DNA of 64,000 bases, from the NCBI GenBank assembly GCA_963666735.1, contig OY762926.1, positions 2,752,001 through 2,816,000 of the forward strand, given 5' to 3'. A model generated the notes under the pieces. The model was not told where the DNA came from. It saw only the letters and a list, made by a program, of their open reading frames with translations, and did no database searches. A program made the translations under genes and the position numbers. This DNA is from Gemmatimonadota bacterium (GTDB lineage: Bacteria > Gemmatimonadota > Gemmatimonadetes > Palauibacterales > Palauibacteraceae). Shown here piece by piece: positions 1,478 to 9,439 of this stretch. Within the stretch, counting starts at the first letter, position 1. Each line of letters opens with the position of its first letter.

Positions 1478-1945
1478 TCAGGCCACGGGTACGACGTCGA
1501 GTTCCGTCGTGATCTCTATGCAGCCGGAAAGCGTTCGGTAGACCGGACACTTCGGCGGATGGGCTTCGAACGCGCGCCGAATCGCATCGGCGTGCGTCTC
1601 ATCCGCCTGGAGACGATACCGGGTCCGGATCCGCCGGATCACGAGCACGCCCTCGTCCGTCTCGATCTCGCCCTCCACGTTCGCCACCAACCGTCCCTCG
1701 TCCGCCTTGACGCCACGCGCTTCCAGCGCGCCCCCGAAGGTTCCGGCCAGTCAGCCGCCGGTCGCGGCAATGACGTAGTCGAGCGTGGTGGCGATGTCGC
1801 GCTGGCCGCTGACTCCGTAGTACGCGGCGATCGCGGAGTGGACGCCGAACTCGACCGGCGCGTCCGTGGCGGGGATCTCCGCCGTGCGGTATGGCCCCTT
1901 CTGTCGCACGATCTTCACGTGCGAGCGGTATACGACGTCACTCAT
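1478..1945 (-). CDS. OsmC/Ohr-like protein, probable selenoprotein (in-frame UGA at 1751-1753)
   Basis: ORFs 1751..1945 and 1478..1690 are in the same frame. Joined, they read ...TLDYVIAATGG-U-LAGTFGGALEARGV...HPPKCPVYRTL. The UGA falls at the first conserved OsmC Cys and the second Cys (KCPV) is intact. The ATG overlaps the upstream Nudix stop (ATGA). Confidence 0.8.
1715..1731 (-). promoter_or_regulatory. Candidate bacterial SECIS hairpin
   Basis: The mRNA reads UGA CUGGCCGGAACCUUCGGGG GCGCGCU-GGA-AGCGCGU. This is a 7-bp stem with a G-leading apical loop starting 27 nt 3' of the UGA. Confidence 0.6.
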
Positions 1946-2568
1946 TGGCTGGTTCTCTCCGTGATGATGTCGAGGAAGTTCATGACGACCCGGTGGGTGA
2001 GCCCCCAAATGGCGTCGCCCTCGAACAAGATGCAGGGCCACACGTGTTCGCGGCCACCATCCGGGTAACGGACCTCGGAGCGCAGAGCCGGGTCGCGCAG
2101 CGCGCGGAGCGGCGCCCAGACGTGATATTGCACCTCCGCGTTCGTCGAGACCCGGGTGTCCTCCCCGTGCCAGGCGACGAAGGGAGAGATGAGGATCGAA
2201 GGGATCCGGCGCGTCACCGGGTGCAGATCGTCGAGCCGGCCCAGGTACCCGCTGCGCGGAAGATCGAGCCCCACTTCCTCCCGCAACTCGCGGCGCGCCG
2301 TCTCCAGGAGATCCGCATCCGCCGTGTCCCGGTGCCCGCCGGGAAGCGCCATGTGGCCGGACCACGGGTCGCCCGGGACCTCCGCCCGCCGGACGAACAG
2401 CACCTCGAGGTCATGGTCCCGCGGACGGACCACGAGCGTCACGGCGGCGTGGCGCTCCGCCGCGCCGGGGTCGACGACCGCGTGACCCTCCGCCGCCAGC
2501 CGACGGGCGACCCCCGCCGTGCTCCAGCCTTCGCTCGCCGATCCTTCGCTCACCGGCCCTTCGCTCAA
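1942..2568 (-). CDS. Nudix hydrolase, CoA pyrophosphatase-like
   Basis: DPWSGHMALPGG...ETARRELREEVGL Nudix box and C-terminal IWGLT. The TTG start overlaps the rsgA stop; start position uncertain. Confidence 0.88.
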   Translation of the reverse strand: MSEGPVSEGSASEGWSTAGVARRLAAEGHAVVDPGAAERHAAVTLVVRPRDHDLEVLFVRRAEVPGDPWSGHMALPGGHRDTADADLLETARRELREEVGLDLPRSGYLGRLDDLHPVTRRIPSILISPFVAWHGEDTRVSTNAEVQYHVWAPLRALRDPALRSEVRYPDGGREHVWPCILFEGDAIWGLTHRVVMNFLDIITERTSQ

Positions 2569-3536
2569 CGCCCCTTCTCCGCCTCGCCGAGGAGGCGCAG
2601 GTAGCTCTCCAGCCGCCGCCGCTCGATCTTCCCATCCTCCACGGCCGTCCGAACCGCGCAATCCGGCTCCACCCGATGGCGACAGTCCGCGAACCGGCAG
2701 CGCTCGCCCGCCGCGGCGATCTCGACGAAGCCGTCGGCGAGTTCCGCGGGATCCAGCCCCCACAGCGCGAGGTACTGCAGGCCTGGCGTGTCGGCTACGT
2801 AGCCGCCCGCCGGGTATCGATAGAGCGCCGACGCCACCGTCGTGTGCCGCCCGCGCCCCCGCCGCTGGCTGATCTCCCCCACGCGCAGGTCGAGTTCCGG
2901 CACGAGCGCGTTCAACAGGCTCGACTTCCCCACCCCCGACTGGCCGCTGAGCACCGTGATCCGTCCTGCGAGGCGTCCGGCGAGCGCCTTCAGCCCCGCC
3001 CTCGATTCCACGCTCGTCCGCAGCGTTTCCACGCCGAGCGCCGCGTACTGTTCGAGGCCGTCTCCGGTTGCGGACTCCCCGAGGGCAGCGCCGGGGCTCG
3101 CCGAGTTCGATGCACGCTCCGCCGGCCCCGTCAGCTCCGACAGATCCGTCTTGTTCACGACGAGGAAGGCGTCGATGCCGCTCAGCGCCGCAAGCGCGAG
3201 CAGGCGGTCCACCATGAGGAAATCGGGATCGGGCGCCGTTACCGAAACGACGACCGCGACCTGGTCCACGTTCGCGACGATCACCTGCTCGCGCCGCTTG
3301 GAGACACCGTGCCGGGACAGCGCGCCGCCTCGCGCACGGAGCCGAACGATCCGCATTTCGTCGCCGACCCGTTCGAGTTCGACGAGATCGCCGACCGAGA
3401 CGATGCGTGAGTCCGTCCGCTTCAGGCGTCCACGCAGCGACGCCTGCACGACAGTCGTGGAATCGTCCACGTGATAGACCCCACCCGCGATCCGCAGCAC
3501 GCGGCCGACGGTAGCGGAGGGACCGCCGGAGGTCAC
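2565..3536 (-). CDS. rsgA: Ribosome small subunit-dependent GTPase A
   Basis: ANVDQ, NKTDL, GQSGVGKSSLLN, GRHTT, DTPG and zinc finger CRFADCRHRVEPDCAV. Confidence 0.95.
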   Translation of the reverse strand: MTSGGPSATVGRVLRIAGGVYHVDDSTTVVQASLRGRLKRTDSRIVSVGDLVELERVGDEMRIVRLRARGGALSRHGVSKRREQVIVANVDQVAVVVSVTAPDPDFLMVDRLLALAALSGIDAFLVVNKTDLSELTGPAERASNSASPGAALGESATGDGLEQYAALGVETLRTSVESRAGLKALAGRLAGRITVLSGQSGVGKSSLLNALVPELDLRVGEISQRRGRGRHTTVASALYRYPAGGYVADTPGLQYLALWGLDPAELADGFVEIAAAGERCRFADCRHRVEPDCAVRTAVEDGKIERRRLESYLRLLGEAEKGR

Positions 3537-3570
3537 GCCGAGCCGCAGCTTCCGTCCGCAGTCGCCGGGC

Positions 3571-4068
3571 TCACGCGGAGGCGCCGTCGGCGTCCGTCCC
3601 GCCGCCCAGTTCCTCGAGACAGTTCCACGCCAGCAGCGCGCACTTAATGCGGACCGGAAACTTCGAGACCCCCGCCAGCGTGCGCAGATCGCCGAGGTCG
3701 TCGTCCGACAGCATCGTTCCGTCTCCGTGCAGGAGGTGGGTGAACTTACCGGAGAGTTCCAGCGCCTGCTCGAGCGACTTTCCCAGCACGCGTCCCGTGA
3801 GCATCGACGCCGACGCCTGGCTGATCGAGCATCCGCGGCCCAGGAAGCGCACCTCCGCGATGCTCCCCCCCTCCACGCGCAGCATGAGTTCGATCACGTC
3901 GCCGCAAAGGGGGTTGTTCATCGTGATCACATGCGTGGCTTCGTCCAGGTGTCCCTTGTTCCGGGGTTTCCGGTAGTGATCGAGGATGACTTCCTGGTAC
4001 AGCTGGTTGAGCGACGAAGGGATCTCCCGGTCGATGGTCCCGGGCGTCCTCGAGCGGGGTTCGATCAT
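3571..4068 (-). CDS. sufU: SUF system NifU-family sulfur acceptor/scaffold SufU
   Basis: LYQEVILDHY, NPLCGD, GCSISQASAS and RIKCALLAW; immediately downstream of sufS. Confidence 0.93.
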   Translation of the reverse strand: MIEPRSRTPGTIDREIPSSLNQLYQEVILDHYRKPRNKGHLDEATHVITMNNPLCGDVIELMLRVEGGSIAEVRFLGRGCSISQASASMLTGRVLGKSLEQALELSGKFTHLLHGDGTMLSDDDLGDLRTLAGVSKFPVRIKCALLAWNCLEELGGGTDADGASA

Positions 4069-4072
4069 GGAT

Positions 4073-5431
4073 TCAGGCGATGCCGCCGAAGACTTCGGCG
4101 GCCATGGCCAGGCCATCGCACAGCACGTCGATCTCCTCCGGCGAATTGTAGAAGTAGAAGCTCGCCCGGGCCGTGGCGCTGATCCCGAAGTGGTCCATCA
4201 GCGGCTGGTTGCAATGGTGTCCGGCCCGGATCGCGATTCCCCGCTGGTCGAGGATCGTGGAGAGGTCGTGCGGATGCACGTCGCCGTACGTGAAGGAGAA
4301 GACCGCGGTTCGCTCTTCGCGCGGGCCGTACAGGCGAAGTCCCTCGATCCCGTCGAGTCGCTCGAGAGCGGCGCGCTTCAAGGCGTCTTCATGCGAAGCG
4401 ATCGCCTCCGGCCCGAGGTCCGCGAGGAAGCGGGCGGCTTCGCCGAAGCCCACGACGCCCGAAATGTTGGGCGTTCCGGCCTCGAACTTGTGCGGGACCT
4501 GCGCCCAGGACGATCCCTCGAGCTTCACCTCCGAGATCATCTCGCCCCCGCCCTGGTACGGAGGCATCTCGTCCAGGAGTTCGCGTCTGGCCCACAGCGC
4601 CCCGACGCCGGTGGGACCGCACATCTTGTGGCTGCTGAACGCGTAGAAGTCGCACCCGAGCTTCGCCACATCGGTCAGCATGTGGGGCGCGGCCTGCGCT
4701 CCGTCGATGAGCGTCAACGCGCCGGCGGCGTGCGCCCGGTCCACGATCTCCCGGACCGGATTGACGGTCCCCAGGCTGTTGGAGACGTGTGTACAGGCGA
4801 CGAGCCGGGGTCGCGTTGCGAGGAGCCGGTCGAGGTCGTCCAGGTCGAGCGTGCCCTCGGGCGTGACGTCGACGAAGCGGAGATCGCACCCCGTGCGGCC
4901 CGCGAGCAGTTGCCACGGCACGAGGTTCGAGTGGTGCTCCATCTTCGTGAGCACGATCTCGTCGCCCGCGCCGATGAACGCGTCCCCCCAACTCGACGCG
5001 ACGAGGTTCACCGCCTCCGTCGTGCCGCGCGTGAAGACGATCTCCGCCGGGTCCCCCGTACCCGCATGCGCCGCCACCGCGCGGCGCGCGCCCTCGTAGG
5101 CCTCCGTCGCCTCCGCGCTGAGTTGATGCACGCCGCGGTGCACATTGGCGTGCTCCTCGCGCAGGTAGCGCTCGACCCGGTTCAACACGCGGAGCGGTTG
5201 CTGTGAACTCGCCGCGTTGTCCAGATAGGCCAGGGGGTGGCCGTTGACTTCCCGCGAGAGAATGGGGAACCGCGCCCGGATCGCCCCGAGATCCCAGCCG
5301 CCATCCTCCGAAGCCTCACCCGCATCGCCGCGGTCGGCGGCCGCGGAGGGACTCCCGGCCGCAAGCACGCCCGTCGCGTGCCTCGGTTCCATCATCGCCG
5401 CCGCCGCCGCCGTCTTCGCCGTCTTCGCCAT
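4073..5431 (-). CDS. sufS: Cysteine desulfurase SufS
   Basis: YLDNAASSQ, NVHRGVH, SSHKMCGPTG (PLP Lys) and RAGHHCNQP (group II catalytic Cys). Low-complexity N-terminus, start uncertain. Confidence 0.95.
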   Translation of the reverse strand: MAKTAKTAAAAAMMEPRHATGVLAAGSPSAAADRGDAGEASEDGGWDLGAIRARFPILSREVNGHPLAYLDNAASSQQPLRVLNRVERYLREEHANVHRGVHQLSAEATEAYEGARRAVAAHAGTGDPAEIVFTRGTTEAVNLVASSWGDAFIGAGDEIVLTKMEHHSNLVPWQLLAGRTGCDLRFVDVTPEGTLDLDDLDRLLATRPRLVACTHVSNSLGTVNPVREIVDRAHAAGALTLIDGAQAAPHMLTDVAKLGCDFYAFSSHKMCGPTGVGALWARRELLDEMPPYQGGGEMISEVKLEGSSWAQVPHKFEAGTPNISGVVGFGEAARFLADLGPEAIASHEDALKRAALERLDGIEGLRLYGPREERTAVFSFTYGDVHPHDLSTILDQRGIAIRAGHHCNQPLMDHFGISATARASFYFYNSPEEIDVLCDGLAMAAEVFGGIA

Positions 5432-5460
5432 CGGGGCCCCGGTCCTCGGCTGGGTTCCGC

Positions 5461-5772
5461 TCAGCCGAGGTCGACCTGAATGTCGTCCCCGTCGATCCGC
5501 ACATCAAAGCGCCGGACCGGCATGACCGCCGGGAGCGCCCTCGGCGCGCCGGTCGCAAGGTCGAAGCGCGCCCCGTGGAGGAGGCAGGTGATCTCGCCCG
5601 CCTCGACCTCGCCGTCCGAGAGCGGGAATTCCTCGTGGGAGCAGCAGTCCTCGAGCGCGTAGATTTCGCCCCCGCTCCGGATGAGGGCGATCGCCAGGTC
5701 CTCGGCCATCACGCCGCACGTTCCGTTCTCCGGCACGTCGTCCACCCTGGCCACCGTGACGAACCGGCTCAT
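5461..5772 (-). CDS. Rieske [2Fe-2S] ferredoxin
   Basis: CSHEE...CLLHGARF Rieske motif. The ATG overlaps the sufD stop. Confidence 0.9.
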   Translation of the reverse strand: MSRFVTVARVDDVPENGTCGVMAEDLAIALIRSGGEIYALEDCCSHEEFPLSDGEVEAGEITCLLHGARFDLATGAPRALPAVMPVRRFDVRIDGDDIQVDLG

Positions 5773-7100
5773 AGCCCGATCTTCTCCTCGATCGCTTCGC
5801 GCACGCGCGCTCGCACCCCCTCCATCGGAAGGCGCCCCAGCACCTCGTCGAAGAACCCGAACACGAGCAGGCGCTCGGCCTGGCGCCGCGTGAGGCCGCG
5901 GCTCATCAAGTAGAAGAGCTGTCCATCCTCCACCTGCCCGATCGTCGCCCCGTGCGAGCAGCGGACATCGTCGGCCTCGATCTCCAGGTTGGGAAGCGCG
6001 GAGGCACGAGAGCGCTCGCTCAGCAGCAGGTTGCGGTTCGTCTGGTAGGCGTCCGTGAGCTGGGCTCCCTTGTCGACCCGGATCAGCCCGCGAAAGACGC
6101 TCGACCCCGCGTCCGTCAGGGCCCCCTTGAACAGCAGGTCGCTGTGCGCGTGCGGCGCCGCGTGATGCTGCAGCGTGTGGTGGTCGAAGTGCTGGTCGGA
6201 GTCGCCGAACCAGAGGGCGAGCATCTCGCTGTCGCTCCCGGGGCCGTCGAGACGGCTCGTCACGTCCGCCCGCGACAGGTCGCCGCCCAGCGCCACATTG
6301 AAGGTGACGACCCGCGAGTCGCGGCCCGCGACGACGTGCTGCGTCGAGAACCGCTTCACGCCCCGGCCGAAGCGCTGGAGCGCGACGTAGTCGATGCCCG
6401 CGCCCCCCTCCCCCGTGATCGTCGCCCCGTGAAGCGAGACCGTCTCCGCATCGAGGTCGTCGGAGAAGAACTCGTCGATGACCGCGGCCCGGGCGCCCGA
6501 CTCCCCGTACACGAACGAATGAGTCGAGGAGAGCGTCCCCGCCCGTTCGACGATGTGGAACGCGTGGATCGGCGCCGGCATCTCCACCCCGCGCGGCACG
6601 TAGAGGAAGTAGCCTCCGCCCAGGAGTGCGAGGTGCAGCGCCCAGAGCTTCTCCTCCGCGGGGCCCGGTTGCGCCTCGAGCAGCGCGCGCCTCAGCACCT
6701 CCGGATGCCGGTCCGCCGCGTCCCGGATCGACGACAGGACCACGCCGCTCCGCGCCACCTCGGGTTCGAGTTCGAGATGCGCGACCCGCCCCTCCCGCAG
6801 CACGACCACGCCCGCGCGCTCGCCGGAGCGTCCGAGCACCTCGCGCACGTCCGCCGACAGCGTTTCCGCCGTTGCGGGCGCCGGGACCACCGGCGTGAGC
6901 GCTTCGAAGCCGACCTTCGTGAGGTCCGTGTACCGCCATTCCTCCGACTTCTTCGTCGGCCAGGGAAGGGAGGTGAACCGCGCCCATGCGGCGGCCCGCG
7001 CCGCCGCGATCACGTCCGGCTCCGTCAGCCCGCCGGCAAGCGTATCGAAATCCGCCGCGGCCAGCGTCGACTCCGCAGGCCCGGCCGTCATCGTGCTCAT
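5769..7100 (-). CDS. sufD: Fe-S cluster assembly protein SufD
   Basis: EEWRYTD, TDAYQTNRNLLLS, PNLEIEADDVRCSHGAT and FYLMSRGL. Confidence 0.95.
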   Translation of the reverse strand: MSTMTAGPAESTLAAADFDTLAGGLTEPDVIAAARAAAWARFTSLPWPTKKSEEWRYTDLTKVGFEALTPVVPAPATAETLSADVREVLGRSGERAGVVVLREGRVAHLELEPEVARSGVVLSSIRDAADRHPEVLRRALLEAQPGPAEEKLWALHLALLGGGYFLYVPRGVEMPAPIHAFHIVERAGTLSSTHSFVYGESGARAAVIDEFFSDDLDAETVSLHGATITGEGGAGIDYVALQRFGRGVKRFSTQHVVAGRDSRVVTFNVALGGDLSRADVTSRLDGPGSDSEMLALWFGDSDQHFDHHTLQHHAAPHAHSDLLFKGALTDAGSSVFRGLIRVDKGAQLTDAYQTNRNLLLSERSRASALPNLEIEADDVRCSHGATIGQVEDGQLFYLMSRGLTRRQAERLLVFGFFDEVLGRLPMEGVRARVREAIEEKIGL

Positions 7101-7149
7101 ATCCTGAGAACCCCTCGTCGTCTGTGTCAGGGAGTGGGAGTCCGGGTCG

Positions 7150-8565
7150 CTATCCGACCGACCCTTCCATCTCCAGCTCGATCAGCCGGTTCAGCTCGAT
7201 CGCGTACTCGAGCGGCAACTCCTTGGCCACCGGCTCGATGAAGCCGCGTACGATCATCGCCATCGCCTCCGCCTCGTCGAGCCCCCGACTCATCAGATAG
7301 AAGAGCTGCTCGTCGCCGACCTTCGAGACCGTGGCCTCGTGTCCGATCGACGCCGTGTTCTCATCGATCTCGATGTAGGGGTAGGTGTCCGTCCGCGACC
7401 GTTCGTCGAGCAGCAGGGCGTCGCACTCGACGTTGGACTTCGCGCCCACGGCGCCGTCATACACCTTGCACAGTCCGCGGTAGGAGGAGCGCCCAAGCCC
7501 CTTCGAGATCGACTTCGAGGTGATCTGGGATGTCGTGTTGGGGGCGGCGTGGATCACCTTGCCGCCCGTGTCCTGGTGCTGGCCGTCCCCCGCGTACGCG
7601 ATGGAGAGGATCTCGCCGTGCGCCCGCTCTCCGACCAGGTAGCACGACGGATACTTCATCGTGAGCTTCGAGCCCAGGTTCCCGTCGAGCCACTCCATCT
7701 TCGCTTCCTCGTGCACGAGCGCCCGCTGCGTGACGAGGTTGTACATGTTGTTCGACCAGTTCTGGATCGTGGTGTACCGGAAGCGCGCGCCCTTCTTGAC
7801 CACGATCTCGATGACCCCGGAGTGGAACGAGTCCGTCGAGTAGACCGGTGCCGTACAGCCCTCGATGTAGTGGGCTTCCGCCCCCTCCTCGCAGATGATG
7901 AGGGTGCGCTCGAACTGGCCCATGCGCTCGGCGTTGACCCGGAAGTAGGCCTGGAGCGGGATCTCCACCTTCACCCCCTTCGGGATGTAGACGAACGACC
8001 CGCCCGACCACACGGCCGAGTTGAGCGCGGCGAACTTGTTGTCATGCGTGGGGACGACGGTCGAGAAGTACTGCCGAAACAGATCCGGGTGCCTGGCGAG
8101 CCCATCCTCGATCGACTCGAAGATCACGCCCTGCTCCTCCCACTGCTCCTTCAGCGAGTGGTAGACCATCTCGGATTCGTACTGGGCCCCGACCCCGGCG
8201 AGCGCCTTCCGCTCCGCCTCGGGAATCCCGAGCTTCTCGAACGTGTCCTTGATCTCCTGCGGGACATCGTCCCAGGACCGCTCCATCTGGTCCTGCGGCT
8301 TGAGATAGAAATAGATCTCGTCGAGCGTGTCCTCGAGCCTCGAGAGGTCGCCGCCCCACTTCGGCATCGGTTTCGAGTAATAGACCTCGAGCGCCTTGAG
8401 TCGGAACTCGAGCATCCACTCCGGCTCTTCCTTGTGATGCGAGATCTGTCGGACGATGTCGCTGGAGAGGCCGGGGACGGCCTTGAAGACGGGCTTGTCC
8501 TCCGTGACGAATCCGTACTTGTACTCGTCGAGTCCGAGTCCGCTGATCGTCTCGTTCCGGGGCAT
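7150..8565 (-). CDS. sufB: Fe-S cluster assembly protein SufB
   Basis: [41 protein letters not shown] and C-terminal LEMEGSVG. Purine-rich RBS before the ATG at 8565. Confidence 0.97.
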
Positions 8566-8596
8566 GTCAATTCCTTCCTTTATGGCCTTTACGGCC

Positions 8597-9370
<774 letters not shown>

Positions 9371-9439
9371 TCGTGTCCTCTTGTGTTGCAAAAGGCCGGT
9401 CACCCAGGGGCGCCGGCCTGGAACCACAGCGATCAATTC

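Follow-up and report, generated by a model that had tools for sequence, protein, structure and literature searches.

An in-frame TGA in an OsmC-fold gene

The question raised by this locus is whether a TGA codon lying inside an OsmC-like reading frame marks a broken gene or a site of selenocysteine (Sec) insertion. The locus is located near one end of the window, by which we mean the whole stretch of 64,000 nucleotides of Gemmatimonadota contig OY762926.1 that was analyzed. Two pieces on the open reading frame track (1751..2365 and 1478..1690, both on the minus strand) were found to share one common frame. As claimed in the original prediction, they are parted only by the TGA at 1751-1753, and the read-through product of 155 residues could be reproduced, with a single internal stop within the motif AATGG-U-LAGT and a second cysteine, Cys133, within the motif KCPV. 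The same letters were observed in contigs from two public runs of two different studies (identical over 1300-2600 and 1300-2037), either of which may be the source sample, indicating that the TGA is not an assembly slip.

We conclude that the gene very likely encodes a selenoprotein of 155 residues with UGA65 at the position of the first catalytic Cys, predicted to be a small selenol/thiol redox enzyme and most likely a peroxidase, a reading to which we assign a probability of about 0.9. The features of the locus are summarized in Table 1. All of them lie on the minus strand, a detail absent from the original prediction. Scanning of the gene locus for promoters and terminators gave none. Two contigs from RNA runs cover the gene, one only partially and the other representing a relative about 92% alike; such contigs, in which DNA may be present, cannot reveal strand, level or read-through.

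Table 1. Positions, within the window, of the selenoprotein gene and associated features
Feature	Position	Strand	Remarks
OsmC-fold (Ohr-like) gene	1478..1945	minus	155 codons with internal UGA as Sec; PF02566, 47.9 bits
Start ATG of the OsmC-fold selenoprotein gene	1945-1943	minus	
Final TGA of the OsmC-fold selenoprotein gene	1480-1478	minus	
In-frame TGA, codon 65	1753-1751	minus	first (peroxidatic) Cys column; Sec inferred
Upper stem (7 bp) of predicted bacterial SECIS, GCGCGCU/AGCGCGU	1731-1715	minus	20-36 nt after UGA
GGA apical loop of predicted SECIS	1724-1722	minus	26 nt past UGA
His36 codon	1838..1840	minus	candidate active-site helper (from conservation)
Asp56 codon, TLDY motif	1778..1780	minus	conserved acid 9 residues before Sec; candidate active-site helper
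Cys133 codon (TGT), KCPV motif	1547..1549	minus	second cysteine, at the resolving position
ATGA overlap, stop of upstream NUDIX-like gene and start of selenoprotein gene	1942..1945	minus	
sufC, sufB, sufD, Rieske ferredoxin, sufS, sufU, rsgA, NUDIX run	1942-9436	minus	upstream of selenoprotein gene

Conservation of TGA and Cys at column 65

A comparison of orthologues had been proposed as a check, TGA or Cys being expected at this column with both flanks conserved. In a survey of 61 genomes (the organism's own and its relatives), matches were detected in 40; all of the 73 near-full-length matches carried one TGA, while five weak partial matches carried none. When individual loci were aligned, codon 65 was TGA in 110 out of 110, over a range of 49-99% protein identity and with no other stop inside the match. 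This collection consists of 30 loci from the genome survey, including that of the window, and 80 of 93 from the database, the two sets overlapping; it reduces to 92 distinct sequences, of which 47 at less than 90% nucleotide identity were used as representatives. The loci were drawn from Gemmatimonadota, Acidobacteriota, Chloroflexota and Calditrichota, and TAA, TAG and TGG were absent from column 65 of all 110. A profile search of the phylum gave matches in 31 of 151 genomes, and each of the 50 matches carried one TGA (two of them also a TAG). The TGA is thus not private to this assembly among relatives carrying TGC or TGT; it is kept together with both flanks.

Homologues with a Cys codon were also identified. 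A metagenome search with a Cys-bearing protein yielded 12 loci, nine of which span the column, and all nine have TGT or TGC there, five of the Cys-codon loci being more than 90% identical to the query. At the protein level, the best 150 of 1334 distant matches include 84 full-length proteins, 68 of which have Cys at the column. In a quick tree of 105 rows, Sec and Cys forms were interleaved with seven label changes; this tree, of weak support and built on biased sampling, may be compatible either with one Sec origin followed by losses or with two gains.

Selenocysteine machinery and genetic code of the genome

The original prediction required selA, selB, selC and selD in the genome, and all four were found above cut-off, so that a complete Sec pathway exists. 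The profile search gave selA (490.9 bits; position 858230), selB (372.9 bits) and selD (373.1 bits; 537977-538903 of genome contig C1), each over its curated cut-off, together with a tRNA-Sec of anticodon TCA (79.7 bits, over cut-off; C1:805245-805340). The selD gene carries an in-frame TGA of its own (GAG-U-ACKL), followed by a 9-bp hairpin with a GG loop. The genes for tRNA-Sec, tmRNA and SelB are aligned on one strand within 8 kb (C1:805245-812738), with selA and selD (starting at 537977) located at a distance. TGA is the commonest stop codon, terminating 754 of the 1127 long ORFs of the genome as well as the selenoprotein gene itself, and codes 4 and 25 are excluded on this ground.

An unbiased genome-wide search for TGA codons open to read-through, with coding-like flanks and a GG-loop stem, gave seven hits, among which the window gene and its OsmC-like paralogue (see below) ranked 1 and 2; the scan is not exhaustive, selD having been missed. 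Two other hits, both with a GG-loop stem and named from their motifs, are presumably a peroxiredoxin-like UxxC protein (GHW-U-PYC; C1:2342702, plus strand) and a formate dehydrogenase alpha-like protein (CSRA-U-HAPT; C1:2723743, minus strand). With the two OsmC-like genes and selD, the genome has at least five candidate selenoproteins.

Among the relatives, selA was over cut-off in 58 of the 61 genomes, and selB in all 18 of the more distant carriers chosen, including members of Acidobacteriota, Chloroflexota and Calditrichota. Since selA is nearly universal, no Sec-less relative is available for a test of co-loss. One carrier genome (G009; 90% complete, 290 contigs) has two copies of the TGA gene and no selA over cut-off. 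A single-contig genome of the same genus (G021) has selA, but with the query used neither OsmC-like selenoprotein gene was matched in it.

The SECIS-like hairpin downstream of UGA65

The bSECIS model, taken from the legend to Fig. 2 of PMC13188914, describes an apical loop of 3-9 nt with G in the initial two positions, an upper stem of 4-16 bp, a loop position 16-37 nt after UGA and a folding energy of at most -7.5 kcal/mol. The hairpin at this locus lies inside all of these ranges (3-nt GGA loop, 7 bp, 26 nt and -15.4 kcal/mol for a 41-nt fragment). Against shuffled sequences, five fragments gave z values from -0.47 to +0.55, that is, no extra stability, and folding energy with z about 0 was rejected as proof of a SECIS. 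In this genome of 68% GC, a stem of at least seven pairs with a GG loop follows 36 of the 754 genuine TGA stops (a G loop follows 96 of the 754), and an equally long GG-loop stem follows 164 of 4496 Cys codons. The hairpin originally proposed 20-36 nt downstream is correct in position, but taken alone it remains within chance; it counts as evidence because it is conserved across homologues, and not because of the stem itself.

The stem was whole in 43 of the 47 orthologue representatives, and 325 of 329 cells were paired, compared with 16-67% when the 3' arm was slid. The loop was GGA in 42 representatives, GGC in three and UGA in two. Pair 4 is C-G in 29 representatives and U-A in 18, and in this switch the Ala-to-Val change at codon 73 always occurs together with a synonymous GCG-to-GCA change at codon 76. 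Pair 1 is flipped to C-G in one locus of Acidobacteriota, and pair 5 is G-C in the window gene and A-U in 18 of 20 loci of the paralogue described below. The 18 U-A cases count as one event, because all belong to one clade; all told, independent changes on both sides of the stem appear to number about three. At codons 72-74 the synonymous divergence was 0.04-0.12, whereas the mean over 56 comparable columns elsewhere was 0.61; 10 columns within codons 66-78 had a mean of 0.36, with a nominal p of 8e-4 that is overstated because the sequences are related.

In the Cys-codon loci, the whole stem was found in none of nine, 4-6 of the seven pairs being kept, and the GG loop in two. The ALEARG peptide is, however, kept in many distant Cys homologues as well, indicating that the conservation of the stem is in part a protein constraint. 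The idea that ALEARG exists solely for the SECIS was dropped: 13 of the 16 Cys forms among the matches listed lose the peptide, but many distant Cys forms retain it. Taken together, the machinery, the conservation of TGA, the Cys homologues and the conserved, covarying hairpin support Sec as the meaning of this UGA, and UGA65 is almost certainly decoded in this way.

Database records and other readings of the UGA

The matches listed number 120 (of 198); 82 of the 83 short ones begin right after the UGA. The RefSeq entries WP_419163731.1 and WP_420633988.1 (Ca. Palauibacter) are C-terminal pieces of 90 residues. That standard pipelines split this gene, as anticipated, is thus borne out by the half-proteins in the databases. 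In the 37 full-length proteins among the matches listed, column 65 is W in 19, C in 16, G in one and R in one. One W-bearing cluster also contains members of 66 residues stopping just before the column, and for this reason the W is probably a code-4 guess of the gene caller. The present reading would correct a systematic annotation error, in which database entries give this branch either as half-proteins or as proteins with an active-site Trp.

Halves stored separately, together with a hairpin that by itself does not exceed chance, are in line with a nonsense mutation or sequencing error that produced a pseudogene, or else two independent small proteins. This explanation is very improbable, as TGA is retained at every one of the loci from four phyla and again in a paralogue clade of 30% identity, the column never holds TAA or TAG and elsewhere holds Cys, the two conserved halves make one fold, and identical contigs were obtained in two runs. 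The records with W, G or R at the column would agree with UGA being translated under codes 4 or 25 as Trp or Gly, or passed by leaky read-through, instead of specifying Sec. The chance of this is just as slight: TGA serves as the main stop of the genome and ends the same gene, TGG does not occur at the column in any of the 110 loci, a tRNA-Sec with the matching anticodon is present, and the Trp itself is probably an artifact of gene calling. Both a nonsense mutation and code 4 are rejected.

Fold, family membership and active site

The read-through protein scores well above the PF02566 cut-off of 27.5 bits. Its two halves, both conserved, together form one predicted fold with pLDDT of 95.4, for which the top structural matches all came from the Ohr/OsmC family. 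Sec65 aligns with Cys57 of Thermus thermophilus OsmC (1ukk) and with the first Cys of canonical OsmC, and the pair of U65 and C133 aligns with both Cys residues of 1ukk and of canonical OsmC. The description of the product as an OsmC-like protein with Sec at the catalytic Cys therefore holds for the fold and the column, but not for membership in classical OsmC or Ohr, nor in the curated Sec-OsmC model NF041052. The score was 19.8 bits on TIGR03562 (cut-off 85.8), and TIGR03561 (Ohr) was absent from the family matches listed for the protein. On NF041052 it was 16.6 bits (cut-off 95; residues 47-150, E 0.006), lower than that of the ordinary YhfA-like protein of the same genome (24.7 bits); the best E-value among 27 family members was 2.8e-06, and none of 151 genomes of the phylum gave a match over the cut-off.

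Gly is found three residues after Sec in 47 of 47 orthologue representatives, and this group is hereafter referred to as the UxxG branch. The column of Cys133 holds Cys in all 47 representatives and in 93 of the 99 distant homologues that span it. His36 and Asp56 are both present in 27 of 27 rows of the family alignment, and in 93 of 109 and 109 of 112 distant homologues, respectively. Asp56, at Cys-9, and Arg/Lys20 are conserved in the family. In a weak alignment (probability 33%), no Arg of the protein lies opposite the Arg of OsmC, and Leu55 takes the place of the Glu at Cys-10, the position that we take to be that of the catalytic Glu. The classical Arg/Glu pair is apparently missing from the UxxG branch. 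Canonical OsmC or Ohr was not found in the genome, and no Ohr match was detected in 41 genomes examined.

Paralogue and genomic neighborhood

A second OsmC-like gene with an in-frame TGA, 30% identical to the first, was identified at C1:1222550-1222993 (L131:5550-5993, minus strand). In its clade, all of the 20 fetched loci have the TGA, the whole stem at equal spacing and the GGA loop, and most members of the genus possess both copies. About 3 kb downstream of the paralogue, an internally deleted partial copy of its 5' end, 96-99% alike and retaining the TGA and the hairpin, was found at L131:2866-3037 (C1 about 1219865-1220036). A 106-nt repeat is located nearby (L131:1905-2010 and 3036-3141), and a permease-like gene and a PIN-like gene, named from their translations, lie between the paralogue copies. 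The partial copy and the repeat look as though sequence was duplicated at the borders of an insertion.

The window gene itself follows a run of suf, rsgA and NUDIX genes (Table 1; names from translations, not from a family scan), and its ATGA overlap suggests coupled translation where this suf-rsgA-nudix run ends. A dipeptidase-like gene ending at 1439 converges on the run. Neighbors of suf type were found in 20 of 80 loci, and 19 of these 20 are at least 82% identical. Next to 26 more distant loci, no common redox or sulfur theme was detected by Pfam in 96 crudely called flanking ORFs, many of which gave no hit. A functional tie to the suf operon was therefore rejected, and the suf context is probably incidental, being confined to these loci with variable neighbors at distant ones. 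One record titled Acidimicrobiia (L051) contains a 98%-identical gene with five neighbors as in Ca. Palauibacter, and is probably a mislabelled or mis-binned contig.

Proposed mechanism and function

By extension from the established pathway of bacteria (PMC13188914), UGA65 would be decoded by SelB in complex with Sec-tRNA and with the GGA-loop hairpin. Sec65 and Cys133 very probably act as a redox pair. On the analogy of Ohr/OsmC enzymes (PMC5384416), Sec65 would attack a hydroperoxide within an assumed homodimer, Cys133 would resolve the oxidized Sec65 to form a selenenylsulfide, which would then be reduced again by a dithiol, for instance a lipoyl group. The role of the missing Arg/Glu pair may be taken over by the conserved His36 and Asp56. 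According to the account in PMC5384416, one study saw no activity in an Ohr-like protein lacking Arg/Glu, while another found it active. Because this pair is apparently absent, peroxidase activity is graded as likely and not higher, and peroxides are slightly favored as the substrate of the Sec65 enzyme.

It is also conceivable, if rather unlikely, that the selenoprotein is not a peroxidase and that Sec65 and Cys133 serve in sulfur or selenium transfer, in disulfide or persulfide reduction or in redox sensing, possibly for the adjoining Suf Fe-S machinery. The narrow distribution of the suf context, the lack of common redox or sulfur neighbors at the distant loci and the location of the paralogue elsewhere in the genome all argue against this alternative, as does the retention of the two redox positions of the peroxidase scaffold. 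For the peroxidase, a wider proposal can be offered tentatively: the UxxG proteins may form an ancient, as yet uncatalogued subfamily, present in at least four phyla as two Sec paralogues of one SECIS design, in which a His/Asp-assisted Sec-Cys center replaces the Arg/Glu-assisted Cys pair, with selenium making up for the lost thiolate-activating residues, and the gene pair may represent the main peroxide defense of Ohr/OsmC type in Palauibacter-like bacteria that lack canonical OsmC/Ohr.

Relation to known OsmC-like selenoproteins

Sec-containing OsmC-like proteins had been assumed to be already reported, and the published surveys confirm this, with Sec at the same position (PMC1088965). They describe OsmC-like selenoproteins with Sec at the catalytic position and the motif UxxT, in 2005 (PMC1088965) and 2008 (PMC2398784), as a family from the Sargasso Sea and GOS surveys assigned to COG1765/PF02566. 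In the consulted text of the 2026 review and of the deep-Sep supplement (PMC13188914, PMC12013277), a single OsmC-like entry, MCS5647933.1, is given. Within the accessible text of the literature on OsmC selenoproteins, Gemmatimonads, Palauibacter and deep-Sep (including PMC1976440, PMC8945050, PMC13326102 and PMC13745706), no description of the UxxG branch was found, and a term search of the descriptive paper on the Palauibacter order (PMC10469786) detected no mention of selenium. Members of the branch may already be included in BSepDB, since its description states that known representatives were used there in a tblastn screen (E 0.01) of Ca. Palauibacter genomes.

Compared by eye with the 2005 form, the UxxG protein shares the OsmC fold, the UGA at the first Cys column, the downstream SECIS and the existence of Cys homologues, and its second Cys likewise lies about 68-70 residues after Sec. 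In contrast, the motifs GIGF-U-LLT and GCFAE of the 2005 form correspond to ATGG-U-LAGT and KCPVY here, so that UxxT is replaced by UxxG with T one place later (U-L-A-G-T), and the GxH and TLDY motifs of the UxxG branch are absent from the published 2005-form sequences. The match to NF041052 (OsmC_like_Se, "OsmC-related (seleno)protein") is weak, as noted above. From these comparisons, the gene is very likely a sequence-distinct variant of the known OsmC-like selenoproteins.

The UxxG branch appears to extend the selenoproteome of bacteria by one subfamily, and suggests that Sec is used throughout an order of uncultured Gemmatimonadota. No general principle is altered, as this way of decoding UGA and a Sec residue at this position are both known already. 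With natural forms that carry either Sec or Cys at the peroxidatic position of this Ohr-like scaffold, the contribution of selenium to the fold can be tested cleanly, as can the function of the poorly characterized Ohr-like group.

In comparison with the classical lipoyl-dependent peroxidases OsmC (TIGR03562) and Ohr (TIGR03561), the first Cys is replaced by Sec, NPEEL of OsmC becomes TTLDY, no Arg is located at the OsmC position, and an extra helix is predicted at residues 37-43. Members of the Ohr-like/YhfA-type group as defined in PMC5384416 (Ta0195 2onf, 1ml8, Aq_1549 and Psyc_0566 2pn2) are 10-17% identical to the Sec protein, which differs from them in having Sec and its own conserved His36 and Asp56. 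Outside the UxxG subfamily, other OsmC-like matches with one in-frame TGA were observed in four genomes of the phylum (G085, G113, G119 and G120), the first two of which have no UxxG-family profile match listed; these possibly represent a further form of Sec-OsmC.
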